This document shows positions 1-20,000 of a stretch of DNA of 20,000 nt, in pieces (position 1 is the first letter of the stretch; each line of letters begins with the position of its first letter). The stretch spans positions 36,941,245 to 36,961,244 of the forward strand of contig OZ234493.1 in assembly GCA_965153455.1 (NCBI GenBank), given 5' to 3'. The translations under genes were made by a program, and so were the position numbers. This DNA comes from Sphagnum compactum (lineage: Eukaryota). The notes under the pieces are model-generated. The model saw only the letters and a program-made list of their open reading frames with translations, searched no databases and had not been told where the DNA came from.

Positions 1-237
1 AAACTTTGAGGTCTATGACAAGTGAATGATCTTCACTTGTTAGTCATACAAGCTAGATTTGGTATTCTTTGATTCATCTATTATTGTCATCTTGTTAAAC
101 TTAATCTTTTCGACTAATTATTGCCTTTGTTTAACTACTGTAATTTGTATATTGCATTTCTCTTATTTCATGTACAGTCTAATAATTTCCAAGAAAGGTA
201 TGAAGAATTGTGTTGACTCATTTCATTTTCTTTGCAG

Positions 238-536
238 AAATATCTAGTGCATGATTTAAATCCCACCTGCAATTCCAATAATCCAAACTTCACCATCATT
301 TTTTTTCATGGGATTGTTTTTGGCACGAATGATGCGTGGAAGGAAACATGGACAACACGTCCCACCAATGATAGAGAAGAGTGCATATGTTGGCCAGAAA
401 AGTGGCTACCTGAAGACTTGAACAACAATGTTCGAATTTTATCATTGTCCTATGATTCTCACATTGTGGCAAGTGTTCACGATGATGTGACTGAAATTGG
501 CAAAAACCTCATCCAAAGTTTGATTGTAAATTCAAG
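238..536 (+). CDS. NLR exon: N-terminal part of SERAC1/PGAP1-like alpha/beta-hydrolase domain
   Basis: Motifs IIFFHGI (oxyanion-hole strand), CWPEKWLPEDL and RILSLSYD are typical of SERAC1-like hydrolases. Polypyrimidine tract plus AG at 236-237, GT at 537. Confidence 0.85.
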
Positions 537-3500
537 GTGTGAAAATCTCCTCTATTTATAAACACATTAATTACTATTCCTTGTGTACATTGAAGCTAAT
601 TTTTTACATCTTTAGAATTTCTTACATGTTTTGCACGAGTTAATTGTTCATGTGTATTAGTACTGCGATACACACCAACAAGTTTCAATTTTCTTAAATT
701 GTTAGATTCATGTAGGAGAACATAAAATGGGGCTTGAATGAAAATGTTCTTGTTTGAGGATAATAGCAAAGTCTATGTTCATATTATAAATTCATGGTAG
801 AACTAGTTTGGTTTTTATGGCAATTTTTAGTTCGTGTTTTTTGAAGTTTTATCTTTGCTAATGCAATTGAATTAAATTAAATTAATACATGTGTAGATAA
901 TTTTCATCCATTTCATTGCAAAAAAACTTATTTAAAAACATATATACATATACAATTTTAAATTTTCAACTATATTTCCAACGGAACAAATAGAAGATGA
1001 GTTGTACATTAACAAAAGAATGTACACACTTACATACTTGTGCATAATAATTGTTTTACCAAAACATGGTTGTCACATTTTCTAGGTAGATTAAAGGAAT
1101 CAATAAATGAAAAATGACGTAGGACAAATAAATCAATTATGAACTTATGGCTTAAGTCATGTGTGAATTGGAAAATTGCCCCAAGTATAATAGGATGAAT
1201 TTGTACATGTTAATACAATGTTGATATGGGATTTTGGTGCATTGTTGAATATTTTGTAGTTATCAATCCCTTTGGAATGGACCAGTGGCATTAATTGCTT
1301 ATAGTTTTGGAGGTCTTGTACTCAAAAGCTTGGTGGTTGAAGCTCGCAAACGTGTATATCAAAGGCTCACAAATGGTTTGGATGATGAAATACAAAAATG
1401 TTGTAAAACATTTTTGAACAATGTCAAAGGTGTAGTATTTTATGGTGTACCACATTCTGGTGCTGACAATTTATTAAAATATTTCGAATGGCAATGTCAA
1501 CAAATCAAGACGTCCAACAAACATTTTGCCCAACTTGGTTTTGCAAGAAATTTAGAACCTTTCAATAAACAAATGCAGTCCCTTTCAAAGGAGTTTAAAG
1601 ATGCCGTTCATGAAGACTTCAACATTTATGAATTCGGTGAAGGATTACCAATCAACAAGAATTGGGTAAAATTTTCATTGTGTCACATTGAAAATTATCC
1701 AACTTGGTTCATTAATTAAACATTTTTTGTATTGTCAAAACTTGTGTGGGATGATGTATTCAATACTTCTAAATATGTCAATGTGGTGAATGGGTCATGT
1801 GTTTTATGAACTTTGTTTCATGAATTACTATCGATGGAAATGAAATGTGATTGATTTCAAACATTAGGAAATAGGTTTAAATTTTCCTTTCATCAAATCA
1901 ATTCCACATAAATATTTTAAAGGAAATCATAACATCATTAAAACATGTAAGATTCCTAAGATTAAAAACCAATAACTTTGTGATGTATTTATATAAGTTG
2001 TTTGCCAAAGGGTTGAAGGAAATTGCTTGTATAAAATATTCCATTATTATTCAAACATCAATAGTTATTAAGTTATTGTTTCCACTACCATTTGGTTTAT
2101 AAGTTAAATGATAAGTGAACAAACAAATCAATGAGTTTCATTAACTTAATTTTTTGCACGTGCAGGGAATTTTAGTGCCATATGTCTCAGCTACTCAGTT
2201 GTCAAACAACAACCATTACAAAATTGAGGATGCTAATCACTTGACAATTTGCAAGCCACTAAGCAAGGATCATTCAAGTTATTCTTTATTGTTAAATTGT
2301 TTAAAAATATATATGCAGGTAAAAACATCAAATCTAATTTTTCTGATTTCATATATGTTCATGTAATTTGAAACACATTAGGTCATAGCACACTTGATGT
2401 GTATCACATATGCAATATCATATATATTGATTATCAAATAAGAAATATAGCATAATGACCTATATTTTGTGAATTTTGACAGAAAAATATAGAGCTTCCG
2501 CCTTTGCCATGTCATGAGGTGGCGTTGATTGACAAAGCAAAAGACATAAACATTTTGTTACAAAAGGAATCTATTGTTGGTTTGGTTGGAATGGGTGGGA
2601 TTGGGAAAACCACTTTGTGCAAAAAATTCTATCATTTGTTCCACAACCAATATGAGAAATCTAGTTTTTTGGAGAACGTGAATTCAAAGGACAATATCAA
2701 TGATGTCATAAAACAACTCTTGCATGATTTATGTGACAAAAATTTATGCAAAGATGAAAATGTGAATAAAGAAAACCTCGACAAAATTAAGCAATGTATG
2801 ATATCGAAAAAAGTGTTAGTGGTGGTGGATAATGTTGGTAAGGCGGAATACCTTACACTTTTGCCAATTCCCATTGATAAAGCTGCCAAAAATCTAGCTT
2901 CTAAAAGCAAAGTACTTGTGAATTGTCGAAATTGGCAAATTCTAAAATCTCATGTAAATGAGGATGGAAAAGTGGTCATGAAACCTTTGGAGGAAGAGCA
3001 AGCAAGGGAACTTTTTATGTTCCATGCATTCGGTAATGCAAATCATGTTCCAACAAAAAAATTCAACGATATATGTATGAAGATTATAGAAGCTTGTGGG
3101 GGGCTCCCTTTAAGTCTTAAAGTATTGGGTTCTTTTTTATGCAATAACAAAGAATTAGAAATTTGGGAAGGTGCATTGAACACATTGAAAAATGGGCAAA
3201 GTTTGACGGGGGGCATTGATAATGAAGAGCTTTGGAATGTATTGAAGATTTCTTATGACCATTTGGATAAAATACATAAAAACATGTTTTTGGATATTGC
3301 TTGTTTTTTTGGTGGTTTGAAAATAAGTACAATTTATCGAGCGTGGAGTGGAGATTATTTACACCCAGAATTTGGATTACAAAATTTACAAGAGAGATCT
3401 TTAATCGAAAGGGCAGAATGTGGAATCTTGTTCATACATGACCAATTACGAGACATGGGTCAAAATATTGCAAGGGAATTACCAATTATGAATCGATTTG

Positions 3501-6500
3501 TATGGAAATCAAATGAATCAAATTATTTTTTACAAAAAGATGAGGTTGTCATTCTATTTTTTCAATCCTATAATTTTATTTCAATTTCTTATGATTTTTT
3601 TTATGTCTAAAACCAAATGTTTTAGCTTTCAATTTTGATTTTATAAATACATGTTTTTCTACTAAATTTTGGCATAGGATGAAATGCTATTTTGCATTGA
3701 TAACCCTTTTGTTTTCATTTCATGTGATAGGTGTGGGAACATTTGGAGGGCATTTCATTGAAAAATTGTGCCAATTTCCCTTTGTTGTCCAAAATCAACT
3801 CAAAGGGATTTTCCAACCTTAGGTTGGTTGACCTAACAGAAGCTTCACCAACTATTGTGGAAAATTTTATTGAACAACGAAATTTGAATAATGTTAAATG
3901 GTTATGCCTCAAAAAATGCATGATGGAAAAATTGCCAAGTAATTTGTTTTCCTGTTCACAACTCCGAATGCTCGATTTGGCACAATGTAAAAAATTGGAA
4001 AAACTACCTTCATCTATTGACCAATTGATTGCACTCCAAGAGTTTGACTTGTCAGGGTGTTCCAACTTGAAAGAACTACCTCCATCTATTGGCAAATTGA
4101 ATGCACTCCAAGAGCTTCATTTGTCAGGGTGTTCCAACTTGAAAGAATTACCTCCATCCATTAGCAAATTGAATGCACTCCAAGAGCTTCATTTGTCAGG
4201 GTGTTCCAACTTGAAAGAACTACCTCCATCTATTGGCCAATTGAATGCACTCAAAAAACTTCATTTGTCAGGGTGTTCCAACTTGAAAGAACTACCTCCA
4301 TCTATTGGCGAATTGAATGCACTCCAGAAGCTTGATTTGCAAAGGTGTTCCGAATTGAAAGAACTACCTCCATCTATTGACCAATTAAATGCACTCCAAG
4401 AGCTTCATTTGTCAGGATGTTCCAACTTGAAAGAACTACCTCCATCTATTGGCCAATTGAATGCACTCCAAAAGCTTCATTTCTTAGGGTGTTTCGAGTT
4501 GAAAGAACTACCTCCATCTATCGGCCAATCGAATGCACTCCAGGAACTTGTTTTGTCAAGGTGTTCCAACTTGAAAGAACTACCTCCATCTATTGGCCAA
4601 TTGAATGCACTCCAAAAGCTTTATTTGTCAGGGTGTCCTAAGTTGAAAGAACTACCTCCATCTATTGGCCAATTGAATGCACTCCGAGAGCTTTATTTAT
4701 GGGAATGTTCCAATTTGAAAGAACTACCTCCATTTATTGGCCAATTGAATGCACTCCAAGAGCTTCATTTGTCAGAGTGTTCCAACTTGAAAGAACTACC
4801 TCCATCTATTGGCCAATTGAATGCACTCCAATGCCTTCATTTGTCAGACTGTTCCAACTTGAAAGAACTACCTCCATTTATTGGCCAATTGAATGCACTC
4901 CAAAAGCTTTATTTGTGCGAATGTTCCAACTTGAAAGACCTACCTCCATCTATTGGCCAATTGAATGCACTCCAAAAGCTTCATTTGTTAGGGTGTTCCG
5001 AGTTGAAAGAACTACCTCCATCTATTGGCCAATTGAATGCACTCCAAGAGCTTCGTTTATCAGGGTGTTCCAACTTGAAAGAATTACCTCCATCTATTGG
5101 CCAATTGAATGCACTCCAAGAGCTTCATTTGACAGGGTGTTCCAACTTGAAAGAATTATCTCCATCTATTGGCCAATTGAATGCACTCCAAGAGCTTGAT
5201 TTGTCCGGGTGTTCCAACTTGAAAGAACTACCTCCATCTATTGGCCAATTGAATGCACTCCAAAAGCTTAATTTGTCAGGGTGTTCCAACTTGAAAGAAC
5301 TACCTCCATCTATTGGCCAATTGAATGCACTCCAACTGTTTTATTTGTCATGGCGTTCCAACTTGAAAGAACTACTTCCATTTATTGGCCAATTGAATGC
5401 ACTCCGAGAACTTGTTTTGTGCGAGTGTTCTAATTTGAAAGAACTACCTCCATCTATTGGCCAATTGTATGCACTCCAAAAGCTTTATTTGTGCGAATGT
5501 TCCAACTTGAAAGAACTACCTCCATCTATTCACCAATTGAATGCACTCCAACAGCTTTATTTATTAGGGTGTTCCGAGTTGAAAGAACTACCTCCAACTA
5601 TTGGCCAGTTGAATGCACTCCAAGAGCTTCATTTGTCAGACTGTTCCGAGTTGAAAGAACTGCCTCCATCAATTGGCCAATTGAATGCACTCCAAAAGTT
5701 TCATTTGTGCGAATGTTCCAACTTGAAAGAACTACCTCAATCTATTGGCCAATTGAATGCACTCCAAAAGCTTCATTTGTTAGGGTGTTCCAGCTTGAAA
5801 GAACTGCCTGCATCTATTGGCCAATTGAATGCACTCCAAGAGCTTGATTTGTCCGGGTGTTCCAACTTGAAAGAACTCCCTGCATCTATTGGCCAATTGA
5901 ATGCACTCCAAGAGCTTCATTTGTTAGGGTGTTCCAACTTGAAAGAACTACCTCCATCTATTGGCCAATTGTATGCACTCCAACATCTTCATTTGTCAGG
6001 GTGTTCCAACTTGAAAGAACTACCTCCATTTATAGGCCAATTGAATGCACTTCAAGAGCTTCAATTGTTAGGGTGTTCCGAGTTGAAAGAACTACCTCCA
6101 TCTATTGGCCAATTGAATGCACTCCAAAAGCTTCATTTGTCAGAGTGTTCCAACTTGAAAGAACTACCTCCATCTATTGGCCAATTGAATGCACTCCAAG
6201 AGCTTCATTTGTTAGGGTGTTCCCACTTGAAAGAACTACCTCCATCTATTGGCCAATTGAATGCACTCCAAAAGCTTCATTTGTCAGGGTGTTCCAACTT
6301 GAAAGAACTACCTCCATTTATTGGCCAATTGAATGCACTCGAAGAGCTTTATTTGTTAGGGTGTTCTGAGTTGAAAGAACTACCTCCATCTATTGGCCAA
6401 TTGAATGCACTTCAAGAGCTTCATTTGTCAGAGTGTTCCGAGTTGAAAGAACTACCTCCATCTATTGGCCAATTGAATGCACTCCAAAAGCTTCATTTGT

Positions 6501-9500
6501 TAGGGTGTTCCAACTTGAAAGAACTACCTCCATCTATTGGCCAATTGAATGCACTCCAAGAGCTTCATTTGTCAAAGTGTTCCGAGTTGAAAGAAGTACC
6601 TCCATCTATTGGCCAATTGAATGCACTCCGAGAACTTGTTTTATCCGAGTGTTCCAACTTGAAAGAACTACCTCCATCTGTTGGCCAATTGATTGCACTC
6701 CAAGAGCTTCATTTGTCAGAATGTTTCGAGTTGAAAGAACTACCTCCATCTATTGGCCAATTGAATGCACTCCAAAAGCTTCATTGGTCAGGGTGTTCCA
6801 ACTTGAAGGAACTACCTCCATCTATTGGCCAATTGAATGCACTTCAAGAGCTTCAATTGTTAGGGTGTTCCGAGTTGAAAGAACTACCTCCATCTATTGG
6901 CCAATTGAATGCACTCCAAAAGCTTCATTTGTCAGAGTGTTCCAACTTGAAAGAACTACCTCCATCTATTGGCCAATTGAATGCACTCCAAGAGCTTCAT
7001 TTGTTAGGGTGTTCCCACTTGAAAGAACTACCTCCATCTATTGGCCAATTGAATGCACTCCAAAAGCTTCATTTGTCAGGGTGTTCCAACTTGAAAGAAC
7101 TACCTCCATTTATTGGCCAATTGAATGCACTCGAAGAGCTTTATTTGTTAGGGTGTTCTGAGTTGAAAGAACTACCTCCATCTATTGGCCAATTGAATGC
7201 ACTTCAAGAGCTTCATTTGTCAGAGTGTTCCGAGTTGAAAGAACTACCTCCATCTATTGGCCAATTGAATGCACTCCAAAAGCTTCATTTGTTAGGGTGT
7301 TCCAACTTGAAAGAACTACCTCCATCTATTGGCCAATTGAATGCACTCCAAGAGCTTCATTTGTCAAAGTGTTCCGAGTTGAAAGAAGTACCTCCATCTA
7401 TTGGCCAATTGAATGCACTCCGAGAACTTGTTTTATCCGAGTGTTCCAACTTGAAAGAACTACCTCCATCTGTTGGCCAATTGATTGCACTCCAAGAGCT
7501 TCATTTGTCAGAATGTTTCGAGTTGAAAGAACTACCTCCATCTATTGGCCAATTGAATGCACTCCAAAAGCTTCATTGGTCAGGGTGTTCCAACTTGAAG
7601 GAACTACCTCCATCTATTGGCCAATTGAATGCACTTCAAGAGCTTCAATTGTTAGGGTGTTCCGAGTTGAAAGAACTACCTCCATCTATTGGCCAATTGA
7701 ATGCACTCCAAAAGCTTCATTTGTCAGAGTGTTCCAACTTGAAAGAACTACCTCCATCTATTGGCCAATTGAATGCACTCCAAGAGCTTCATTTGTTAGG
7801 GTGTTCCCACTTGAAAGAACTACCTCCATCTATTGGCCAATTGAATGCACTCCAAAAGCTTCATTTGTCAGGGTGTTCCAACTTGAAAGAACTACCTCCA
7901 TTTATTGGCCAATTGAATGCACTCGAAGAGCTTTATTTGTTAGGGTGTTCTGAGTTGAAAGAACTACCTCCATCTATTGGCCAATTGAATGCACTTCAAG
8001 AGCTTCATTTGTCAGAGTGTTCCGAGTTGAAAGAACTACCTCCATCTATTGGCCAATTGAATGCACTCCAAAAGCTTCATTTGTTAGGGTGTTCCAACTT
8101 GAAAGAACTACCTCCATCTATTGGCCAATTGAATGCACTCCAAGAGCTTCATTTGTCAAAGTGTTCCGAGTTGAAAGAAGTACCTCCATCTATTGGCCAA
8201 TTGAATGCACTCCGAGAACTTGTTTTATCCGAGTGTTCCAACTTGAAAGAACTACCTCCATCTGTTGGCCAATTGATTGCACTCCAAGAGCTTCATTTGT
8301 CAGAATGTTTCGAGTTGAAAGAACTACCTCCATCTATTGGCCAATTGAATGCACTCCAAAAGCTTCATTGGTCAGGGTGTTCCAACTTGAAGGAACTACC
8401 TCCATCTATTGGCCAATTGAATGCACTTCAAGAGCTTCATTTGTTAGGGTGTTTTGAGTTGGACGAACTACCTCCATCTATTGGCCGATTGAATGCACTC
8501 CAAAAGCTTTATTTGTCAGAATGTTCCGAGTTAAAAGAACTACCTCCATCTATTGGCCAATTGAATGCACTCCAAAAGCTTCATTTGTCAGGGTGTTCCA
8601 ACTTGAAAGAACTACCTCCATTTATTGGCCAATTGAATGCACTCGAAAAGCTTTATTTGGTAGGGTGTTCCGATTTGAAAGAACTACCTCCATCTATTGG
8701 CCAATTGAATGCACTCCAAGAGCTTCATTTGTCAGAGTGTTCGGAGTTGAAAGAATTACCTCTATCTATTGGTCAATTGAATGCACTCCAAGAGCTTCAT
8801 TTGTTAGGGTGTTCCAACTTGAAAGAAGTACCTCCATCTATTGGCCAATTGAATGCACTCCAAGAGCTTCATTTGTCAGAGTGTTCCGAGTTGAAAGAAC
8901 TACCTCCATCTATTGGCCAATTGAATGCACTCCGAAAACTTGTTTTGTGCGAGTGTTCCAACTTCAAAGAACTACCTTCATCTATTGGCCAATTGATTGC
9001 ACTCCAAAAACTTTATTTGTGGGAATGTTCCAACTTGAAAGAACTACCTCCATCTATTGGCCAATTGAATGCACTTCAAGAGCTTCATTTGTTAGGGTGT
9101 TCCGAGTTGAAAGAACTACCTCCAGCTATTGGCCAATTGAATGCACTCCAAAAGCTTCATTTGTTAGGGTGTTCCGAGTTGAAAGAACTACCTCCATCTA
9201 TTGGCCAATTGAATGCACTCCAAGAGCTTCATTTGTCAGGATGTTCCAACTTGAAAGAACTACCTCCATCCATTGGCCAATTGAATGCACTCCAAAAGCT
9301 TTATTTGTGGGAATGTTCCAACTTGAAAGAACTACCTCCTTTTATTGGCCAATTGAATGCACTAGAAGAGCTTCATTTGTCAGGGTGTTCCAACTTGAAA
9401 GAACTACCTCCATTTATTGGCCACTTGAATGCACTCCAGGAGCTTTATTTGGTAGGGTGTTCCGAGTTGAATGAACTACCTCCATCTATTGGCCAATTGA

Positions 9501-10405
9501 ATGCACTCCAAGAGCTTCATTTGTTAGAGTGTTCTGAGTTGAAAGAATTACCTCCATCTATTGGCCAATTGAATGCACTCCAAAAGCTTTATTTGTGGGA
9601 ATGTTCCAATTTGAAAGAACTACCTCCATCCATTGGCCAATTGAATGCACTCCAAGAGCTTCATTTGTCAGGGTGTTCCAACTTGAAAGAACTACCTCCA
9701 TTTATTGGCCAATTGAATGCACTCCAAAAGCTTCATTTGTTAGGGTGTTCCAACTTGAAAGAACTACCTGCATCTATTGGCCATTTGAATGCACTCCAAG
9801 AGCTTCATTTGTCAGAATGTTTCGAGTTGAAAGAACTACCTCCATCTATTGGCCAATTGAATGCACTCCAAAAGCTTTATTTGTGGGAATGTTCCGAGTT
9901 AAAAGAACTACCTCCATCTATTGGCCAATTGAATGCACTCCAAAAGCTTCATTTGTCAGGGTGTTCCAACTTGAAAGAATTACCTCCATCTATTGGCCAA
10001 TTGAATGCACTTCAAGAGCTTAATTTGCATAGGGATTCCGAGTTGAAAGAACTACCTTCATCTATTGGCCAATTGAATGCACTCCAAGAGCTTCATTTGT
10101 CATGGTGTTCCAACTTGAAAGAATTACCTCCATCTATTGGCCAATTGAATGCACTCCAAAAGCTTTATTTGTGGGAATGTTCCGAGTTGAAAGAACTACC
10201 TCCATCTATTGGCCAATTGAATGCACTCCAAGAGCTTTATTTGTGCGGGTGTTTCAACTTGAATGAACTACCTACATTTATTGGCCAATTGAATGCACTC
10301 CAAAAGGTTCATTTGTTAAGGTGTTCCAACTTGAAAGAACTACCTGCATCTATTGGCCAATTGAGTGCACTCCAACAGCGTATTTGTCAGAGTGTTCCAA
10401 CTTGA
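238..10405 (+). CDS. Hydrolase-NB-ARC-LRR (HNL-type) NLR immune receptor, spliced: join(238..536,1260..1665,2166..2318,2483..3544,3731..10405); 5' end incomplete, >=2864 aa
   Basis: Five ORF segments join in frame at GT-AG junctions: acceptor tttgcAG|238; AAG|GT 537 to tttgtAG|1260 (phase 2, codon AG+T=Ser); TGG|GT 1666 to tgcAG|2166; CAG|GT 2319 to gacAG|2483; GAG|GT 3545 to gatAG|3731. Domain order is hydrolase, NB-ARC, LRR. No in-frame ATG precedes 238, so the first exon is upstream or unresolved. Confidence 0.9.
1260..1665 (+). CDS. NLR exon: hydrolase core with nucleophile elbow
   Basis: VALIAYSFGGLVLK (Ser codon 1303-1305), GVVFYGVPHSG, IYEFGEG; splice sites are phase-consistent with both neighbours. 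Confidence 0.88.
2166..2318 (+). CDS. NLR exon: hydrolase C-terminus with putative catalytic His
   Basis: GILVPYVSA and DANHLTICKP (His codon 2238-2240); tgcAG acceptor and CAG|GTAAAA donor. Confidence 0.88.
2483..3544 (+). CDS. NLR exon: NB-ARC domain
   Basis: P-loop GMGGIGKT (2588-2611), kinase-2 VLVVVDNV, RNBS-B SKVLVNCR, RNBS-C PLEEEQARELF, GLPL (CGGLPLSL), RNBS-D MFLDIACFF, MHD-type FIHDQLRDMG. Confidence 0.95.
3731..10405 (+). CDS. NLR last exon: giant LRR domain (~90 LRRs, 2224 aa)
   Basis: Uninterrupted ORF of consensus LNALQ[EK]L[HY]L[SL][GE]CS[NE]LKELPPSIGQ. It ends 8 codons after a 1-nt deletion at ~10380 (TGA at 10403-10405). Confidence 0.93.
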   Translation: MWEHLEGISLKNCANFPLLSKINSKGFSNLRLVDLTEASPTIVENFIEQRNLNNVKWLCLKKCMMEKLPSNLFSCSQLRMLDLAQCKKLEKLPSSIDQLIALQEFDLSGCSNLKELPPSIGKLNALQELHLSGCSNLKELPPSISKLNALQELHLSGCSNLKELPPSIGQLNALKKLHLSGCSNLKELPPSIGELNALQKLDLQRCSELKELPPSIDQLNALQELHLSGCSNLKELPPSIGQLNALQKLHFLGCFELKELPPSIGQSNALQELVLSRCSNLKELPPSIGQLNALQKLYLSGCPKLKELPPSIGQLNALRELYLWECSNLKELPPFIGQLNALQELHLSECSNLKELPPSIGQLNALQCLHLSDCSNLKELPPFIGQLNALQKLYLCECSNLKDLPPSIGQLNALQKLHLLGCSELKELPPSIGQLNALQELRLSGCSNLKELPPSIGQLNALQELHLTGCSNLKELSPSIGQLNALQELDLSGCSNLKELPPSIGQLNALQKLNLSGCSNLKELPPSIGQLNALQLFYLSWRSNLKELLPFIGQLNALRELVLCECSNLKELPPSIGQLYALQKLYLCECSNLKELPPSIHQLNALQQLYLLGCSELKELPPTIGQLNALQELHLSDCSELKELPPSIGQLNALQKFHLCECSNLKELPQSIGQLNALQKLHLLGCSSLKELPASIGQLNALQELDLSGCSNLKELPASIGQLNALQELHLLGCSNLKELPPSIGQLYALQHLHLSGCSNLKELPPFIGQLNALQELQLLGCSELKELPPSIGQLNALQKLHLSECSNLKELPPSIGQLNALQELHLLGCSHLKELPPSIGQLNALQKLHLSGCSNLKELPPFIGQLNALEELYLLGCSELKELPPSIGQLNALQELHLSECSELKELPPSIGQLNALQKLHLLGCSNLKELPPSIGQLNALQELHLSKCSELKEVPPSIGQLNALRELVLSECSNLKELPPSVGQLIALQELHLSECFELKELPPSIGQLNALQKLHWSGCSNLKELPPSIGQLNALQELQLLGCSELKELPPSIGQLNALQKLHLSECSNLKELPPSIGQLNALQELHLLGCSHLKELPPSIGQLNALQKLHLSGCSNLKELPPFIGQLNALEELYLLGCSELKELPPSIGQLNALQELHLSECSELKELPPSIGQLNALQKLHLLGCSNLKELPPSIGQLNALQELHLSKCSELKEVPPSIGQLNALRELVLSECSNLKELPPSVGQLIALQELHLSECFELKELPPSIGQLNALQKLHWSGCSNLKELPPSIGQLNALQELQLLGCSELKELPPSIGQLNALQKLHLSECSNLKELPPSIGQLNALQELHLLGCSHLKELPPSIGQLNALQKLHLSGCSNLKELPPFIGQLNALEELYLLGCSELKELPPSIGQLNALQELHLSECSELKELPPSIGQLNALQKLHLLGCSNLKELPPSIGQLNALQELHLSKCSELKEVPPSIGQLNALRELVLSECSNLKELPPSVGQLIALQELHLSECFELKELPPSIGQLNALQKLHWSGCSNLKELPPSIGQLNALQELHLLGCFELDELPPSIGRLNALQKLYLSECSELKELPPSIGQLNALQKLHLSGCSNLKELPPFIGQLNALEKLYLVGCSDLKELPPSIGQLNALQELHLSECSELKELPLSIGQLNALQELHLLGCSNLKEVPPSIGQLNALQELHLSECSELKELPPSIGQLNALRKLVLCECSNFKELPSSIGQLIALQKLYLWECSNLKELPPSIGQLNALQELHLLGCSELKELPPAIGQLNALQKLHLLGCSELKELPPSIGQLNALQELHLSGCSNLKELPPSIGQLNALQKLYLWECSNLKELPPFIGQLNALEELHLSGCSNLKELPPFIGHLNALQELYLVGCSELNELPPSIGQLNALQELHLLECSELKELPPSIGQLNALQKLYLWECSNLKELPPSIGQLNALQELHLSGCSNLKELPPFIGQLNALQKLHLLGCSNLKELPASIGHLNALQELHLSECFELKELPPSIGQLNALQKLYLWECSELKELPPSIGQLNALQKLHLSGCSNLKELPPSIGQLNALQELNLHRDSELKELPSSIGQLNALQELHLSWCSNLKELPPSIGQLNALQKLYLWECSELKELPPSIGQLNALQELYLCGCFNLNELPTFIGQLNALQKVHLLRCSNLKELPASIGQLSALQQRICQSVPT
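4031..10366 (+). repeat. Coding tandem repeat, 88 x 72 bp (24-aa LRR units)
   Basis: gcactc anchors at 4031 and 10367 are 6336 bp = 88 x 72 apart. Near-invariant core ttgaaagaactacctccatctattggccaattgaatgcactc. Confidence 0.97.
6035..8439 (+). repeat. Higher-order repeat: 3 x 792 bp (11 LRR units each)
   Basis: Rare variants recur at a 792-bp offset (e.g. tcccac His, cattgg Trp, tctgtt Val, tcaaag Lys). Shadow-frame ORFs at 6433 and 7225 have identical translations, and the one at 8017 continues the pattern. Confidence 0.93.
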
Positions 10406-11750
10406 AAGAACTACCTCCATCTATTGGCTAATTGAATGCACTTCAAAAGTTTTATTTATGGGAATGTTTCAACTTGAAAGAACTACCTCCATCTATTGGC
10501 CAATTGAATGCACTCCAAAAGCTTCATTTGTCAGGGTGTTCCAACTTGAAAGAACTACCTCCATCTATTGGTTAATTGAATGCATTCCAAGAATTTGATT
10601 TGTCATGGTGTTCCGAGTTGAAAGAACTACCTCCATCTATTGGCCAATTGAATGCACTCCAGGAACTTGATTTGTCAGGATGTTTCGAGTTGAAAGAAGT
10701 ACCTCCATCTATTGGCTAATTGAATGCATTCCAAGAACTTTATTTGTGGGAATGTTCCAACTTGAAAGAACTGCCTCCATGTATTGGCCAATTGAATGCG
10801 CTCCAAGAACTTGTTTTGTGCGAGTGTTTCAACTTGAAAGAATTACCTTCATGTATTGGTCAATTGAAACTCCGAAAGCTTGATTTGGCAAAGTGTCTCA
10901 ACATAACTACCCAACATAACTACCTTCATCTATTGGCCTATTGAATACACTGAAAAAGTTTGATTTGTCATGGTGGTCCAACTTGAAAGAATTATTTTCA
11001 TCTATTGACTGATTGAATGCACTCTGAAAGTTTTATTTGTTAGGGTGTTCCAACTTGAAAGAACTACCATCATGTATTAGCCGATTGAATGCACTTTAAA
11101 AGCTTGATTTGAATGGGTGTTCCGAGTTGAAAAAATTACCGTCATTTATTGGTCAATTGAATACATTCTAAAAATTTGATTTGTTAGGGTGTTGCAACTT
11201 TTAAAAACTACCTTCATGTATTGGCCAATTGAATGGACACCGAAAACTTGATTTGAATGGGTGTTTGAGTTTAAAAAATTATCTTCATCTATTGGTTAAT
11301 TGAATGCATTCCAAGAATTTGATTTGTCAAGGTGTTACAACTTGAAAAAAACTAACTTCATTTATTGACCAATTGAATGCACTCCAATTTTCATTTATAA
11401 AGCTTCTACAACTTAAAAGCATCATCCAAAAAATACATTCATCTATGGGCGAATTGAATGTACTCAAAGTTTTTCATTTGTCATGGTGTTCCAATTTGAA
11501 ATAACTAGTTTCACCTATTGGTCATTGAGTGCACTTGAAAATTTTTATTTGTGTGAATGCTTCAACTTGCAAGAATTATTTGCATGTACATTGGCCAATT
11601 AAATGCATTCCAAAAGTTTTAGTTGTGGGAGCTTAATTTGTATGAGCTTATAGGAAATACTTACGTTTATTGGCCAATTTAATGCATTCAAAGAACTTAA
11701 TTTGTTAAGGTGTTTCAATTTGAGATAATTACTTTCATCCATTGTCGATT
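10367..11750 (+). pseudogene. Out-of-frame, progressively decayed LRR units (~19) downstream of the frameshift
   Basis: The same 72-bp unit continues with caa->taa stops (~10429, ~10573, ~10717), a 3-nt deletion (~10868), a 13-bp duplication (10899-10924) and increasing divergence 3'-ward. Confidence 0.88.
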
Positions 11751-12684
11751 GTATCATTAGTAAAAAACCCTTTTTTTTTCAACCAAACCACTTTCAACTT
11801 GATGTCATCTTCGACTAAATTTCAATTGTATTGTTTTGAATATTAAAAAAAATTATTCACAATTTTCAAGTAAATTGTGAGCCACCTACTCTTTTGGTGG
11901 ACAAATGAAGGCATATCCCAAATATTTTGCAGCTCACAGAATGTTTTTAGCACACCCATGGTCTACAATTGAATTCTAGTCAAATTGTTGATTTGGAAAT
12001 TTACATAGTCTATAGTCAAGCCTTTTTGGGTTATGTGTCCCATGTTCAACTTCTTTGGTTGATTACAAAACATAGTGATGGATGATAGATCACACATTGA
12101 TGGATGACATTGAGATTGGCAGTAATGTCTTCGTTGCAAATGCACATCAAGACTATTTGTCGACTATGACTACAAGTTGAAGGCAAAAAATGAATGTTGA
12201 ATAATCTTACATATTATGTCCACAACTCAGTTGCAAATGTTATTTAGTAAACATGACAACAACCATTGTGCCATGTTCTACAAACATTGGTATATGCATG
12301 GTTCTAGTTTTAAGAAACAAATATTTATTGAGGTTGTCAAAGCCAACAAAATCATAAGGATGAAAATATGTTCTTTTTCTTTGAAAAACCCCCACAACTA
12401 GATATTGAAAACTATCAAGTTATTTGATGATTTGTCAAAAACATTCAAATCCTAGGTTTTACGATAGATGGTGGGCAAAAATGGTTTAGCTTCCAAGAAA
12501 ACATTATTCATGTCAAGATGGGACCTTTCACCCACTTCCCTATTAAAAGACATTTGGTCTCGAGAAAAATTTAACATAATAAAACTAGTTTTCTTTATAG
12601 TTCAATACATGAGAAAATACATATGGACAAGGAGACCTTGATGCCCAAGAAAAGAAATGATCTTTTGATCAATAGAAGCATTGT

Positions 12685-12975
12685 CACTAATGGAAAAAGG
12701 CTAAAATGTAACGAAATGATTTGTGATTACATCCGACTAATTGTCATTTACAACTAACATTGGTTACATTTGTGACTAAAAATCACATCACACATTTTTT
12801 TCTCACATTTATGACTATGTTGCAACTATTTTTAGGTTTTCATTCTTCCAATGAGACAATTTTTCATGTTATTTTCCTCTTAGAAGGCCTTCATATGGCC
12901 CATTAGTTGCAAAAGTGACCAAAAAATGATAATTAATACTTATTTACACATTAAGTTATGTATGTGACTAATTTT
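12685..12975 (+). mobile_element. Possible degraded CACTA-type DNA transposon terminus with subterminal repeats
   Basis: CACTAATGGAAAAA at 12685 resembles CACTA termini and is followed by clustered gacta/caacta/tagttgca motifs in both orientations. No matching right TIR or TSD found. Confidence 0.3.
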
Positions 12976-13049
12976 GTATAGGGTAAATCATGTGTTTTAT
13001 GTCATGGTAACTAACAATTATGTATAGTAAGCCTTATGTATACATCATG

Positions 13050-14130
13050 TACTCCACATTCATAATGGTATATATATATATGTATTATTTTTGTGGATTA
13101 ATTAAACATGGTTTGAAAAAACTATTATTGTATATTGACCTCATATTAAAATATATGTAAAAATGACAATACATCAATCATCCATAGGTGTATAAAAATA
13201 TATATACAATAATTATCATAGAATTATTGTGATTAAATTAATTACCAAAAAAGTATATATATAATCAAATTATTTAGAACTTAAAATCTAAAATTAGAAT
13301 CCATATTTAATCTTTTTACGCTAATCATAATATAGTTCAACTAATTAATGTAATTATCATCATTATTGTCAAATAATATATCTATTATTTATAATTACTT
13401 ATTACAATAAATAATTATTCTTTTAATATAAAAATTTGGAATTTTAATTCTTGAAATTTACAAATGCTAAAAATTAAATTAAAAAAAAATGTAATTGCAC
13501 TTATTAATCATATTGATAATTTATAATTAAAATTAAAATTTACAACTTTTATGGTAATTTTACTATAATGTGAATAATTAATGTACTTGTTGTAATTACA
13601 ATAATTGAATTATAATATATTATTGTTATGTAAAACCGATAATATTTTATTGAAACTAAATAGTTATTATTACAATAGTAGTTTTTACATAAAATTTTAT
13701 TACTTTTACACAATAATAAAAATTATAAAATTATACTAAATTGATTTTAATCAAATTAATTATTTAAAAATAATTTTCTATTTATTTAGTAGTAGTATCA
13801 TAAAAAGATTGTATAATATTTAAGCTATTTATACAATAGAAATTATAATTAAATTCGGATCTATTTTTTTATAATTATATTATAATTAAAATAAAATATG
13901 TAATTATTGTAAAATATTGTGTTTCTAATTTAAAATTACTTCTTTATGGGTAACAATTATTAGCACTACAAAATATTCACGTTTTTATAGTAATCATAAT
14001 TAATTACTATGATTGTAATAATTTAATGAAAGTTCATGACTATATGTTTGTTGTATTTTTTTGAATTTCATCATTATATGCATATTTTTATTCAAATTAA
14101 CAATTTCAATTTGTAAATGTTTTTGTCACT
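13050..14130. other. Extremely AT-rich low-complexity non-coding tract
   Basis: Runs of aatt/tata/atta with very few G/C and no ORFs. Confidence 0.75.
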
Positions 14131-15648
14131 TGATGATTTCACCATATGTTTATGATGTTTGAATACAATACAATATGTAGAAAATAAAATGTCATGAAAA
14201 AATGAATCACCCTATCTTGCAACTACCCCACCTATCATCTTTGTGGATTGTGATTTAGTTGCAATAATTTATTGACAATCTTTTTCGAGCATACCCATCA
14301 CTCTTGGCATATTGGAGAATACACACAACTTTGTCCCATTGTGTTGTTCCTTTTTGTGATGTCATTTTTATTATTTTGTGTTGTCCCGTTGGTGTGCAAT
14401 TTGGGGTTTAAAGTTAGATTCCAAAGATGTTCAAGGAAGGGTGGGCATGAAAATGGAAGCGAATATGGCACAATCACTCCCAATGGAAACACCCAACATT
14501 TTGGTTCAAACATGTAAAATATACTTTTGAATACATTTTGTTGTTTGCATGTTTATGTTATTTATTTCCATTCATTTGTGTGCTTTATTTCAAGATCTAT
14601 GGTATTCAAGAATCAAATTTCCATTGTTCTCTCTTAGTCTTTAATCATGAGGCACATGAATTAGTTTAGTTCAATGAGTCTTAGTTTCCTTTTAAATATC
14701 ATCCTTAATGAATTTCTTACATCCACGTGGTTAAGATCAATTAGTGCACCTTCATAATTTTTGTCACAAGTGTCAAACCACTAACTTTTTTAAGAACCAA
14801 GGTGTGGTTGCAAGAATTAATAATCTTCCATAAGTCTTAGTACAAGACCTTATAATTTTGCAAAATATAGGAAAATTTGGAAGGAAATGAATTAAATCTT
14901 TTTGAATTGGGAATATGAGTCCTTGATTCATAAGAACATTTACTACTTAATAGTTTTTAAAAACTTGGATCCATGATTTAGGATCCTCAATTCTTCATTA
15001 GGACATACAATCTTACGTTAAGAATTGGATTTCTGGATTATATTTTCCACTTTTGTCTTATGAAATCCAATCTTGCATATTGAGCTTAATTATGTGGAGT
15101 ACTTTTATTTTTTGTCACCCCTTTTTGTCAATTCCTTTTATGTCTTTCCTTGTTATTCTCAATTCCCCTGCCTTCTGCCTTACGAGTGTAATGCTTACAT
15201 CATATGTATACGGCATTTACACCTTAAATCCAACAACTCTACGATTCTTGAAAACAATACAAAAGAGAGGGAATGAGATATAAGAAACTAACAAAGAAGA
15301 TCACTCTTACATTCTTTTGTAAAGAGGATATGCTTTTCACGTCATCAGCTACCTCATTTTTTGATTCATAAATCAACAAGTCACATGCACCCGCCAAAAC
15401 ATTAGATAGGGATCAATATTCTTACAACTTCGTAGTAATCTCGCGTTCGTCCCATTTCCAAGATGCAATGTCTATTTCAAAGATGACCAAAATAACTTCT
15501 CAAAAGTGAAAAACATTTTATTGCCCTTATCCCTACAGGGCTACATCTAGCTTATTTTTGTGGAAAAGAAAATGGGACTCTAGAAATGAAGAAGCATTCA
15601 TGGGAAGTAGAAAAACAAGATACTTCTCACCCGATTTAATGTCATCGT

Positions 15649-16369: not shown

Positions 16370-16417
16370 GGGTTTAGGGTTAGGGTTTAGGGTTTAGGGT
16401 TTAAGGGTTTAGGGTTT
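16370..16417 (+). repeat. Internal (subtelomeric) telomeric tract, ~6-7 TTTAGGG-like units
   Basis: gggtttagggttagggtttagggtttagggtttaagggtttagggttt, in the same orientation as the terminal telomere. Confidence 0.9.
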
Positions 16418-16882
16418 TTGGAGTTTTGAGGTGACCTACCCCCCCATTTTCAAGGGTTGTGAATCCAATGGTGTAAAAACATTTTCATAATCTATCACCA
16501 TTTATGAGATATGGGGGGTATGAAAATTTGGGGTCTCGGGATAAATGAAGGTGTTTAGGGGTAATTATTATGGATTTTGAATGTTTTGAAGTGACCTACC
16601 CCCCCATTTTCAAGTGTTTTGAAGCTAGTGGTGGAAGTATTTTTGCCTAAAAATGTAGGGTTTGGAAGATATTGAAGATTTGGGGTTTTTGGGTTACATG
16701 GGCATTTGGAGCCAATTGCGATTTTGTTTTAGGGATTTGGAGGTGACCTACCCCCCCATTTTCAAGTGTTTTTAACAAGATGGTGCAAAAACATTTTCAT
16801 AATCTATCACCATTTGGAAGATATGGGGGGGTTTGACTTTTCAGTCCCTGGTTGACTTTTCCTGTATGTGCACAGAATTTGA
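16418..16882 (+). repeat. Subtelomeric satellite block, copy 1 (3 units of ~152-160 bp)
   Basis: Anchor gtgacctacccccccattttcaag at 16431, 16591 and 16743. Confidence 0.88.
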
Positions 16883-16939
16883 AGGTTTCCAGGGCAATGT
16901 AAGATGGGCATTTGAAGGTTTCCAGGGCAATGTAAGATG
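16877..16939 (+). repeat. Direct duplication, 30 bp identical, 33-bp period
   Basis: atttgaaggtttccagggcaatgtaagatg at 16877 and 16910. Confidence 0.9.
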
Positions 16940-16991
16940 TAATCCATAAAGTTGCTTGGGTGTAGGGTTTAGTGTTGATGTAGTTATGTGT

Positions 16992-17560
16992 AGTTTTGCC
17001 AAAAATATAGAGTTGTGTCATAATTTTGCCAAATTTGTGGAGTTATGCCAAGTTTTGCGAAAAATATGGAATTATACTAAGTTTTTGCCAAAATTATGGA
17101 AATATGTGAAGTTTTGCCAAATTTATGAAGTTATGCCGAATTTTGCCAAAAATATGGAAATATGTGGAGTTTTGCCAAAAATATATAATTATGTTATAGT
17201 TTTGCCAAATTTATGGAGTTATGCCAAGTTTTGCCAAAAATATGGAATTGTGTTAAGTTTTTGCCAAAATTGTGGAAATATGTGAAGTTTTGCCAAAACT
17301 ATAGAGCTGTGTTTTAGTTTTGCCAAATTTATGGAGTTATGTCAAGTTTCGCTAAAAATATGGACGTGTGTGAAGTTTTGCCAAAAATATAAAGTTATGT
17401 CTTAGTTTTGCCAAAAATATGGAATTATTTGAAGTTTTGCCAAAAATATAAAGTTATATTTTAGTTTTGACAAAAAATGGAATTATATTAAGTTTTGCCA
17501 AAAATATAAAGTTATGTCTTAGTTTTGACAAAAATATGAAATTATTTGAAGTTTTACAAA
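16992..17560 (+). repeat. Subtelomeric minisatellite, ~20 units of ~29-30 bp
   Basis: Recurring agttttgccaaaaatatggaattatg-like unit. Confidence 0.92.
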
Positions 17561-17616
17561 ACAGGGTTTAAGGTTTAAGGTTACATGTGTGTCCCCAGCA
17601 AAATTGGGTTTTTTTT

Positions 17617-18080
17617 TTTGGGTTTTGAGGTGACCTACCCCCCCATTTTCAAGGGTTCTAAAGCCAATGGTGCGATAAAATTCGCTTAATCTATCACCAT
17701 TTGGAAGATATGGGGGGTGTGAAATTTTAGGGGGGCCGGATAGATGAGGGCATAAAAGGTTAATTATGATACATGTTGAAGGTTTTGAAGTGACCTACCC
17801 CCCCATTTTCAAGTGTTTTAAGGCTAGTGGTGGAGTTATTTTTGCTTGAAAGTGTCAGATTTGCAAGATATAGGAGATTTGGTGTTTTTGTGTTTGATGG
17901 GCATTTTCACCTGATCGCGGTGTTGTTTGTGATATTAGGAGGTGGCCTACGCCCCCATTTTCAAGTGCTCTAAATCCAATGATGTAAAAAAATTTGCATA
18001 CACTATCACCATTTGGAAGATATGGGGGGGTTTGACTTTTCAGTCTCTGGTTGACTTTCCCTGTGGTTCACAGAATTTGA
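17617..18080 (+). repeat. Subtelomeric satellite block, copy 2 (diverged duplicate of 16418-16882)
   Basis: Anchors at 17630, 17790 and 17942 (offset 1199 from copy 1, same 160/152 spacing). Shares the 3' end tttgacttttcagt..tggttgacttt..cacagaatttga. Confidence 0.88.
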
Positions 18081-18098: not shown

Positions 18099-20000
18099 GG
18101 TTTAGGGTTTAGGGTTTAAGGTTTCAGGGTTTAGGAATTAGGGGTTTAGGGTTTAGGGTTTAGGTTTAGGGTTTAGGGTTTAGGGTTTAGGGTTTAGGTT
18201 TAGGGTTTAGGGTTTAGGGTTTAGGGTTTAAGGGTTCAGGGTTAGGGTTTAGGTTTAGGGTTTAGGGTTTAGGGTTTTAGGGTTTAGGGTTTAGGGTTTA
18301 GGGTTTAGGGTTTTAGGGTTTAGGGTTTAGGGTTTTAGGGTTTAGGGTTTAGGGTTTAGGGTTTAGGGTTTAGGGGTTTAGGGTTTAGGGTTTAGGGTTT
18401 AGGGTTTAGGGTTTAGGGTTTAGGGTTTAGGGTTTTAGGGTTTAGGGTTTAGGGTTTAGGGTTTAGGGTTTAGGGTTTAGGGTTTAGGGTTTAGGGTTTA
18501 GGGTTTAGGGTTTAGGGTTTTTAGGGTTTAGGGTTTAGGGTTTAGGGTTTAGGGTTTAGGGTTTAGGGTTTAGGGTTTAGGGTTTAGGGTTTAGGGTTTA
18601 GGGTTTAGGGTTTAGGGTTTAGGGTTTTAGGGTTTAGGGTTTAGGGTTTAGGGTTTAGGGTTTAGGGTTTAGGGTTTAGGGTTTAGGGTTTAGGGTTTAG
18701 GGTTTAGGGTTTAGGGTTTAGGGTTTAGGGTTTAGGGTTTAGGGTTTAGGGTTTAGGGTTTAGGGTTTAGGGTTTAGGGTTTAGGGTTTAGGGTTTAGGG
18801 TTTAGGGTTTAGGGTTTAGGGTTTAGGGTTTAGGGTTTAGGGTTTAGGGTTTAGGGTTTAGGGTTTAGGGTTTAGGGTTTAGGGTTTAGGGTTTAGGGTT
18901 TAGGGTTTAGGGTTTAGGGTTTAGGGTTTAGGGTTTAGGGTTTAGGGTTTAGGGTTTAGGGTTTAGGGTTTAGGGTTTAGGGTTTAGGGTTTAGGGTTTA
19001 GGGTTTAGGGTTTAGGGTTTAGGGTTTAGGGTTTAGGGTTTAGGGTTTAGGGTTTAGGGTTTAGGGTTTAGGGTTTAGGGTTTAGGGTTTAGGGTTTAGG
19101 GTTTAGGGTTTAGGGTTTAGGGTTTAGGGTTTAGGGTTTAGGGTTTAGGGTTTAGGGTTTAGGGTTTAGGGTTTAGGGTTTAGGGTTTAGGGTTTAGGGT
19201 TTAGGGTTTAGGGTTTAGGGTTTAGGGTTTAGGGTTTAGGGTTTAGGGTTTAGGGTTTAGGGTTTAGGGTTTAGGGTTTAGGGTTTAGGGTTTAGGGTTT
19301 AGGGTTTAGGGTTTAGGGTTTAGGGTTTAGGGTTTAGGGTTTAGGGTTTAGGGTTTAGGGTTTAGGGTTTAGGGTTTAGGGTTTAGGGTTTAGGGTTTAG
19401 GGTTTAGGGTTTAGGGTTTAGGGTTTAGGGTTTAGGGTTTAGGGTTTAGGGTTTAGGGTTTAGGGTTTAGGGTTTAGGGTTTAGGGTTTAGGGTTTAGGG
19501 TTTAGGGTTTAGGGTTTAGGGTTTAGGGTTTAGGGTTTAGGGTTTAGGGTTTAGGGTTTAGGGTTTAGGGTTTAGGGTTTAGGGTTTAGGGTTTAGGGTT
19601 TAGGGTTTAGGGTTTAGGGTTTAGGGTTTAGGGTTTAGGGTTTAGGGTTTAGGGTTTAGGGTTTAGGGTTTAGGGTTTAGGGTTTAGGGTTTAGGGTTTA
19701 GGGTTTAGGGTTTAGGGTTTAGGGTTTAGGGTTTAGGGTTTAGGGTTTAGGGTTTAGGGTTTAGGGTTTAGGGTTTAGGGTTTAGGGTTTAGGGTTTAGG
19801 GTTTAGGGTTTAGGGTTTAGGGTTTAGGGTTTAGGGTTTAGGGTTTAGGGTTTAGGGTTTAGGGTTTAGGGTTTAGGGTTTAGGGTTTAGGGTTTAGGTT
19901 TAGGGTTTAGGGTTTAGGGTTTAGGGTTTAGGGTTTAGGGTTTAGGGTTTAGGGTTTAGGGTTTAGGGTTTAGGTTTAGGGTTTAGGGTTTAGGGTTTAG
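18099..20000 (+). repeat. Telomere, Arabidopsis-type (TTTAGGG)n, ~270 units
   Basis: The G-rich strand runs 5'->3' to the window end. Variant units lie proximally (to ~18630), then the array is near-pure. Confidence 0.99.

Follow-up and report, generated by a model that had tools for sequence, protein, structure and literature searches.

The repeats of the NOD-like receptors (NLRs) encoded by the HNWD genes of Podospora anserina (het-e, het-d, het-r and nwd) are 80-100% identical within a gene, according to the accessible portions of two reports; their variation falls on a few codons of the binding surface, their number is unstable through unequal crossover, and the units cluster mostly by gene (PMC12222747, PMC4986451). 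The tomato Hcr2 genes (Cf-2/Cf-5), as outlined in the available excerpt of a third report, contain nearly identical nucleotide repeats encoding 24-residue leucine-rich repeats (LRRs), with intragenic recombination varying their number and identical LRRs occurring at different positions in homologues (PMC7468133). Hydrolase-NLRs (HNLs) were first described in Marchantia, and the available part of that report records none in mosses (Xue et al., 2012; PMC3352924); their domains are described as running alpha/beta-hydrolase, NB-ARC and LRR, with introns where the domains meet, and their NB-ARC as close to that of TIR-NLRs (PMC3352924, PMC11218826), and the accessible sections of Chia et al. (2024) list Sphagnum Hyd-NLRs, some of them in a separate minor clade (PMC11218826). 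The gene described here lies in a 20,000-nt stretch of the Sphagnum compactum genome (GCA_965153455.1, OZ234493.1:36,941,245-36,961,244, forward strand; the whole stretch is called the window). Judged by its predicted domain features, it is a member of the hydrolase-NB-ARC-LRR class, and its LRR region is an array of 88 consecutive, near-identical 72-bp units.

As in the Podospora receptors, the repeats within this one gene are at least about 80% identical (88% mean identity between units), and their variation is confined to a few codons, here five, of the interaction surface, which is the concave side by standard LRR geometry; relatives of the gene carry 1-81 units, these being paralogues or other relatives and not alleles, as a second allele of the window locus was looked for and not found. 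The sets of variable codons are gene-specific, comparable to the clustering of Podospora units by gene of origin given in the accessible text, and the likeness to these highly internally conserved NLRs that was drawn in an earlier note on this DNA is apt. It is a likeness by analogy and not by homology: the repeats are LRRs rather than WD40, ANK or TPR motifs, the nucleotide-binding domain is an NB-ARC of the plant TIR-NLR-like (TNL-like) clade rather than a NACHT, the N-terminal domain is a hydrolase rather than a HET domain, and there are 88 units as opposed to about 10-12. Because the repeats form a solenoid, and not a closed propeller as in the Podospora HNWD proteins, their number is not geometrically capped. 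The Hcr2 genes resemble the moss gene in their mode of repeat evolution and in their near-identical 24-residue LRRs, but they encode extracellular, membrane-anchored receptor-like proteins of Solanum that have no NB-ARC and tens of units (Cf-2 reportedly has 38 LRRs), whereas the product predicted here is an intracellular NLR with an NB-ARC and 88. With the bryophyte HNL/Hyd-NLR proteins the gene shares both the order of domains and the placement of introns at their borders; how regular or how numerous the repeats of those proteins are is not mentioned in the accessible portions of the two reports on them.

The specificity of plant NLRs is usually attributed to gene duplication, point mutation and exchange between paralogues, in receptors with a few tens of divergent LRRs. 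In the variable lymphocyte receptors (VLRs) of lampreys and hagfish, LRR modules that differ at concave-face residues are recombined into antigen receptors, through somatic assembly from flanking cassettes into an incomplete germline gene. Unlike a VLR, the moss gene is complete and open in the assembly, and the sole units flanking it are an in-line, decayed tail. A search of the moss and plant NLR literature, with subscription journals and supplements outside its reach, found no description of near-identical LRR arrays or of 88-repeat NLRs; the repeat-shuffling design known from fungal receptors and Cf-2 has apparently not yet been described for a plant NLR.

Repeat units of the array

Tandem Repeats Finder reports one 72-bp array at 3998-11387 (102.6 copies, 87% matches, 0% indels, score 10511). 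The 88 regular units counted in the earlier note are confirmed at 4031-10366, in frame and without an indel (Table 1), although the array as a whole is longer than had been proposed: an edge unit precedes the regular units and about 12 tail units follow them, to about position 11570. Neither stops nor indels occur in 89 consecutive units. Units 29-39, 40-50 and 51-61 are identical, agreeing at 792/792 nt in all three pairwise comparisons, and runs of units at lags of 11 and 22 show 0 mismatches. The three blocks appear to show a very recent duplication, by unequal exchange or slippage. Because of them only 66 of the 88 units are independent, so that the number 88 stands as a count and not as a sample size; units 40-61 were left out of the unit statistics, which use 66 non-redundant units, 63 of them distinct. 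The array as a whole likewise contains 63 distinct units by DNA, and 58 by peptide.

Conservation along the unit is strongly uneven. Across the 88 units, 19 of the 72 positions are invariant; 31 deviate in no more than one unit, and 46 in no more than three, in agreement with the roughly 42 almost invariant nucleotides suggested before. The variable nucleotides are 10, 16, 23, 24, 26, 27, 34 and 36, which belong to codons 4, 6, 8, 9 and 12, and the codons found there come, as the earlier note had observed, from small sets that are used repeatedly (GAG/AAG; CAT/TAT/GTT/GAT; TCA/TTA/TGG/TGC; GGG/GAA/GAG; AAC/GAG). Outside the triplicated block two units differ on average at 8.5 of 72 nt, and framework amino-acid identity within the array is 0.91.

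Among the 66 units, the proportion of non-synonymous differences (pN) is 0.317 at codons 4, 6, 8, 9 and 12 and 0.048 in the other 19 codons; the corresponding synonymous proportions (pS) are 0.377 and 0.087. Hypervariable pN is 3.6 times framework pS, and non-synonymous change per site at the hypervariable codons is 0.203, compared with 0.047 for synonymous change in the framework. This contrast suggests positive selection on the surface codons of the array.

The position of these codons in the protein was modelled with AlphaFold2 for the first 460 residues of the LRR exon, using an alignment of 34 relatives. The model (predicted local distance difference test, pLDDT, 93.5; predicted template-modelling score, pTM, 0.88) has a short strand and a helix of five residues in every 24, and in well-formed repeats the strand occupies unit positions 4-8 and the helix positions 18-22. 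On the modelled strand, codons 4, 6 and 8 are interleaved with the core leucines at 5 and 7; codon 9 follows directly after it, and codon 12 lies in the next loop. In the standard LxxLxLxxC/N geometry of LRRs such strand positions face the concave side, and the variable codons are by that geometry predicted to be concave-face positions, which fits the earlier assignment of the variable residues to the binding face in so far as they lie on or next to the strand. A longer model of 1200 residues (46 units) is an unbroken solenoid with a pLDDT of 92.0, its overall shape being uncertain (pTM 0.58). Foldseek matches in the PDB are generic LRR solenoids only (Leptospira LIC11098, SHOC2, plant receptor kinases and the RPP1 LRR).

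Mosaic composition of the units

The relationships among units are those of mosaics. All four gametes are present in 119 of the 253 informative site pairs, a conflict that the earlier note had proposed looking for, and 18 of the 63 distinct units can be composed exactly from two others by a single crossover, compared with 3/63 in a column-shuffled control. A private base, seen in no other unit, occurs in 32/63 distinct units. The 66 units carry 42 distinct five-residue signatures, fewer than the 51.8 +/- 2.1 (minimum 45) obtained with shuffled columns, and association between codons is significant for the pairs 6-8, 8-9 and 8-12 only. The idea that specificity residues are shuffled is thereby borne out as far as mosaicism and four-gamete conflicts go, but not as free shuffling; recombination as the source of diversity likewise accords with the triplicated block and with the 1-81 units of relatives, but shares its role with private point mutations in half of the units. 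The picture these comparisons suggest is of an array that is well mixed by recombination between units and by point mutation, and in which combinations are many but not free.

Units that lie next to each other resemble one another no more than units far apart, and no higher-order period beyond the 11-unit triplication was found in the window array. Codon 4 (nt 10) shows a weak alternation of Glu and Lys, with 44 changes among 65 neighbour pairs compared with 36.4 +/- 3.7 after shuffling (44 is reached in 140 of 5000 shuffles); this is a faint echo of Cf-2, which is said to have two alternating repeat types.

Structure of the gene

Exons were placed by tblastn with the best full-length relative, Sphagnum fallax BDL97_01G004100 (P0003; 1250 aa; name per source record), and their borders were set at GT..AG. 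The five exons listed in Table 1 join to 8595 nt (2864 codons) with 0 internal stops, and the model matches residues 52-800 of P0003 at 89.2% identity in a single ungapped block; judged by the relatives, the exon for the first ~51 residues is outside the window. For the first modelled intron, 536/1260 is the sole GT/AG pair that keeps the frame. The introns at 2319-2482, between hydrolase and NB-ARC, and at 3545-3730, between NB-ARC and LRR, coincide with domain borders, and both are GT..AG.

A nucleophile-elbow-like motif, AYSFG, is found in hydrolase exon 2, and the NB-ARC exon contains GMGGIGKT (P-loop), LVVVDN (Walker B), GGLPL and IHD. A Pfam scan of the window's hydrolase exons, taken singly, gave 0 matches, while DUF676 (PF05057, putative serine esterase) is present in all three relatives scanned (P0003, P0009 and P0010; 22.4-25.1 bits, with a cut-off of 20.3). 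The order hydrolase, NB-ARC and LRR is assigned because the N-terminal part of the relatives scores as DUF676 and the NB-ARC and LRR are recognized in the window itself, and the exon matches, the NB-ARC and the DUF676 of the relatives together uphold the earlier identification of the gene as a hydrolase-NLR. The closest database relatives of the NB-ARC exon are all Sphagnum proteins (75-89% identity), after which come flowering-plant TIR-NLRs (30-37%). The LRR exon begins with a 76-residue irregular lead-in, continues with the diverged edge unit and the 88 regular units, and has a frameshifted end.

Table 1. Positions of features within the 20,000-nt window of Sphagnum compactum.
Feature	Position	Strand	Observation
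First part of N-terminal alpha/beta-hydrolase (DUF676-like)	238..536	+	96% identity to P0003 residues 52-151 (tblastn)
Hydrolase exon 2	1260..1665	+	89% identity to P0003 residues 152-286
Hydrolase exon 3	2166..2318	+	82% identity to P0003 residues 287-337
NB-ARC and Roq1-like winged-helix exon	2483..3544	+	Pfam NB-ARC E 5.8e-33, WHD_ROQ1 E 2.6e-12
Single LRR exon	3731..10405	+	Open reading frame (ORF) of 2224 codons without stop; Pfam LRR_14 E 8.8e-48
Diverged edge unit	3959..4030	+	Precedes the 88 regular units
88 exact 72-bp units (24 codons each)	4031..10366	+	Cut into 72-mers, all in frame of ORF 3731..10405
Three identical 11-unit blocks	6035..8439	+	Exact 792-bp periodicity
Unit 89 with 1-bp deletion	10367..10405	+	Frame shifts, stop codon at 10403-10405
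Tail of ~12 decayed units, untranslated	10406..11570	+	Register shift, stops, indels
Conserved 3' flank	11601..15100		blastn against 80 related loci, 80-96% identity in many
Telomere repeat (GGTTTAG)n, plant-type	18099..20000	+	271 copies, 1.9 kb, G-rich strand toward window end

Transcription of the family

Window positions 1-4030 were compared, at 90% likeness or more, with contigs of two DNA runs and two RNA runs (moss metatranscriptomes). The GT..AG joints 1665/2166, 2318/2483 and 3544/3731 are found in both RNA runs, which come from two studies, and in neither DNA run; the first of these joints was seen in the RNA-run contigs X15 and X17 only. Because the joints are in the RNA and not the DNA runs, the hydrolase-NLR family is transcribed and spliced as modelled. 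Contigs of the RNA runs also cover intron sequence (897-1019 and 1908-2157) at 94-98% identity, so that these libraries must contain unspliced RNA or DNA as well; for this reason only spliced joints were taken as evidence.

Arrays in related Sphagnum genes and moss metagenomes

The 67 annotated Sphagnum relatives have 0-23 regular units, with a scaffold identity of 0.82-1.0 and an identity at variable positions of 0.26-0.79. Among relatives in the length class of 1223-3892 aa, no Sphagnum protein longer than 1350 aa with such an array was found. The C-termini of the annotated relatives are frameshifted readings of the unit. One annotated Sphagnum jensenii protein (P0002, 1364 aa) seems to join two adjacent members of the family, in which a hydrolase, a partial NB-ARC and the start of an LRR are followed by NB-ARC and LRR again and by a C-terminus of frameshifted repeat; it suggests that gene prediction struggles with the hydrolase-NLR family.

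Moss-metagenome contigs retrieved with a 100-residue lead-in yielded 80 related loci, all 80 of which carry 72-bp arrays, of 1-81 units. The ORF ends inside the contig in 65 loci, where the units in frame number 49 at most and 15 at the median. In the other 15 loci the contig stops before the array does; L001, one of these, has at least 73 in-frame units. Arrays of 50-81 units are held by independent contigs, and one locus, L036, has 81 units in total. The extreme copy number emphasized in the earlier note is thus real for the window gene but not unique to it.

The way in which these ORFs end was recorded for 66 genes (the 65 loci and the window). In 48/66 the end is a nonsense substitution in the unit frame, in 4/66, the window among them, a frameshift, and in 14/66 something else; the nonsense ends include CAA>TAA at codon 3 (14 cases) and codon 22 (11) and GAA>TAA at codon 15 (8). 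Since the ORFs end at a nonsense codon or frameshift inside the array, the family has no C-terminal cap, and the length of each protein is that set by its first disabling mutation. Beyond the ORF, out-of-frame or post-stop tails comprise 0-58 units. Where a class offers 10 or more distinct units, omega in the scaffold is 0.56 for units in frame and 0.71 for tails, and stops occupy 1.2% of the scaffold codons of tails. In three loci a single CAA>TAA or GAA>TAA closes the frame after 1-6 units, and the next 46-58 units still look intact (L064, 6 units in frame and 56 in the tail; L075, 1 and 58; L006, 5 and 46); omega in their tails is 0.49-0.70, and the scaffold stops number 1-6. Such loci could be alleles, genes knocked out very recently, reserves of silent units or errors of assembly. 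For L064 and L075 the truncation appears recent because their long tails are as well preserved as open arrays.

The closest relative of the window gene is L001, which differs at 1 of 125 four-fold sites in the NB-ARC and lead-in (Nei-Gojobori pS 0.039 and 0.033, respectively). Its array is collinear with that of the window at the 5' edge only: just 2 of its 73 units have an exact counterpart in the window, no run of at least 3 units with at most 2 mismatches was found between the two arrays, and a global alignment at the level of units costs 531, compared with 563.5 +/- 7.4 for shuffled order, with the signal coming from the first few units. If the L001 contig is right, the interior of the array would have been rebuilt while its flanks barely changed. 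Identical units are common to the window and this relative only. The alphabets of variable codons are gene-specific, codon 6 being mainly His in the window and L001 and Asp elsewhere. The unique parts of the genes (NB-ARC exon and lead-in, window against 76-80 loci) have a pN/pS of about 0.5, indicating fast protein evolution, and amino-acid identity in the lead-in is just 70-90% while four-fold sites differ by about 8%.

Homogenization of the unit throughout the family was considered and dropped, as the result depends on the metric. The scaffold consensus is nearly identical across all loci, third positions included. In the 54/80 loci with an ungapped lead-in alignment and at least 8 units, divergence at third positions is 0.008 for the array consensus and 0.21 for the lead-in, a contrast that at first seemed decisive. 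Nei-Gojobori pS between the unique regions of the window and the loci is 0.167 (NB-ARC) and 0.269 (lead-in), compared with 0.087 within the window array. At four-fold sites, however, the unique regions of window and loci diverge by just 0.078, units from different arrays by 0.099 and units within the window array by 0.065, and unique-region and between-array divergence are uncorrelated over 55 loci (r = 0.08). Exchange between loci of the family is possible.

The array end and the chromosome end

The ORF of the window gene belongs to those that reach a stop after a frameshift. In the shifted frame of the tail, three CAA>TAA stops fall within the first 7 units, and more indels follow after ~10870; per site, the framework has changed about 2-4 times as much as in the ORF units, and 7 framework codons are stops. 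In the 3' flank, matches to related loci include L003 (96% over 2950 bp), L013 (89% over 3526 bp) and L036. Because the flank is 80-96% conserved in many loci, the family duplicates as segments larger than the gene. No ORF of note was found in 11601-15100, which includes a stretch of 16% guanine plus cytosine at 13001-14000.

The window ends in a telomere repeat, and no convincing ORF was found between 11.5 and 18.1 kb, so that the NLR is the last gene before the telomere. An interstitial telomere-like run (6.9 copies, 16370-16417) lies 1.7 kb inside the terminal repeat, and between the two is a 29/59-bp satellite of ~20 copies (16978-17555). Short ORF-like repeats recur on the minus strand at 16797-17042, 17519-17794 and 17855-18067. 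Telomere repeats were found in 0/80 related loci, an uninformative figure since metagenome contigs rarely reach chromosome ends.

Origin and maintenance of the array

Taken together, these features probably describe an LRR sensor of high internal conservation whose evolution runs through gene conversion and through unequal crossover in register, with Podospora HET-E/D and tomato Hcr2 as its analogues. The gene would be a telomere-proximal member of a young and large Sphagnum family of hydrolase-NB-ARC-LRR immune receptors, the youth of which is seen in its genes and likewise in the 80-96% conservation of the 3' flank. Each 72-bp unit would correspond to one repeat whose leucine/cysteine scaffold is kept and whose codons 4, 6, 8, 9 and 12 vary. 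With a unit of exactly 24 codons and hardly any differences in the scaffold DNA, the frame would be kept whenever pairing is misaligned. Unequal crossover or replication slippage could then add or remove blocks of units, a recent instance being the three 792-bp blocks; within units, surface codons would be recombined by crossovers or short conversion tracts, and point mutation would add new ones. Selection would keep the scaffold and tolerate or favour change at the surface. With no C-terminal cap, the protein would end at the first nonsense codon or frameshift, and later units would persist as a silent tail. Conceivably, the subtelomeric position raises the rate of exchange.

Several observations weigh against this reading. 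Within the hypervariable codons pN/pS is 0.84 and not above 1, so the argument for positive selection rests on the contrast with synonymous sites of the framework; the concentration of changes on surface codons described in the earlier note is confirmed. Recurrent mutation at a few hot sites could be the source of the four-gamete conflicts. Four-fold divergence from unit to unit (0.065-0.10) is about that from gene to gene (0.078), so the similarity of the units could reflect youth and not ongoing homogenization. Many relatives are truncated early and have long, well-preserved tails (L064 and L075), which implies that array expansion may proceed without need of the protein. The related loci are metagenome contigs in which the order and number of units may be mis-assembled. 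In every public run, at most 45% of the words sampled from window 1-4030 are present. The RNA joints cover that segment, and not transcripts through the array, and because the RNA contigs are short, were matched at 90% likeness or more and come from a multigene family, they are not assignable to the window copy.

The alternative that deserves most attention, although we consider it unlikely, is a runaway coding minisatellite, that is, neutral expansion in a recombination-prone subtelomere, with the 88-repeat ORF on its way to a pseudogene and the surface pattern inherited from shorter, functional ancestors. The ending of 48/66 arrays at an in-array nonsense codon would follow from it, as would silent tails of up to 58 units that keep the pattern (omega 0.49-0.54), the expansion by blocks seen in the fresh 792-bp triplication, the mild constraint on the framework (omega 0.56) and the ceiling of 23 regular units in annotated relatives. 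Set against these are the 89 consecutive units without a stop or indel, directly adjoining a 12-unit tail in which a frameshift, 7 framework stops and indels have accumulated; no damage is seen in the NB-ARC motifs or at any splice site, the reading frame of a second gene, L001, stays open through at least 73 units, and a 1200-residue stretch is modelled, with a pLDDT of 92.0, as an unbroken solenoid. There is also a slim chance that the true array is shorter or differently ordered and that the three identical 792-bp blocks were made by the assembler. Perfectly identical tandem blocks are a classic site of copy-number error, and the limited recovery of window 1-4030 in public runs bears on this point as well, but a 6.3-kb repeat without an N or an indel, in a contig that reaches a 1.9-kb telomere, is presumably typical of accurate long-read assemblies. 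Assemblers collapse repeats more often than they expand them, arrays of 50-81 units are present on independent contigs, and removal of two of the blocks would still leave 66 units.

Least credible of all is a programmed or somatic diversification, in which unit order or content changes during the growth of one plant with the silent tail as donor. The evidence that could be enlisted for it is circumstantial (the architecture of an open array followed by a silent homologous tail, the subtelomeric site, and the lack of collinearity with the very close relative L001), while nothing in the window suggests dedicated machinery and the complete gene is present in the assembled DNA. A related proposal, improbable but not quite to that degree, is that long LRR arrays and their silent tails recombine mitotically in the haploid, clonal Sphagnum shoot, so that apical-cell lineages gain and pass on new NLR specificities; exchange would then be helped by the subtelomeric site, with the tail supplying donor units much as pseudogenes do in other antigen-variation systems.

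Implications for Sphagnum NLRs

In-register recombination among near-identical units, the reading preferred here, would mean that an early-diverging land plant has an entire NLR family built on a near-identical scaffold that lengthens, shortens and reshuffles in frame. Annotation appears to under-report such genes, since annotated relatives have at most 23 regular units while genomic arrays reach 81. The window gene itself predicts a protein of ~2,900 residues with 88 repeats, for which an immune function would be expected. If such long proteins work, they pose the questions of how an NLR with a solenoid three- to four-fold over length is kept inactive and how it recognizes ligands, and they would constitute a natural modular LRR scaffold. 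If they do not, the family would be a clear case of a coding minisatellite that both produces and destroys receptors.

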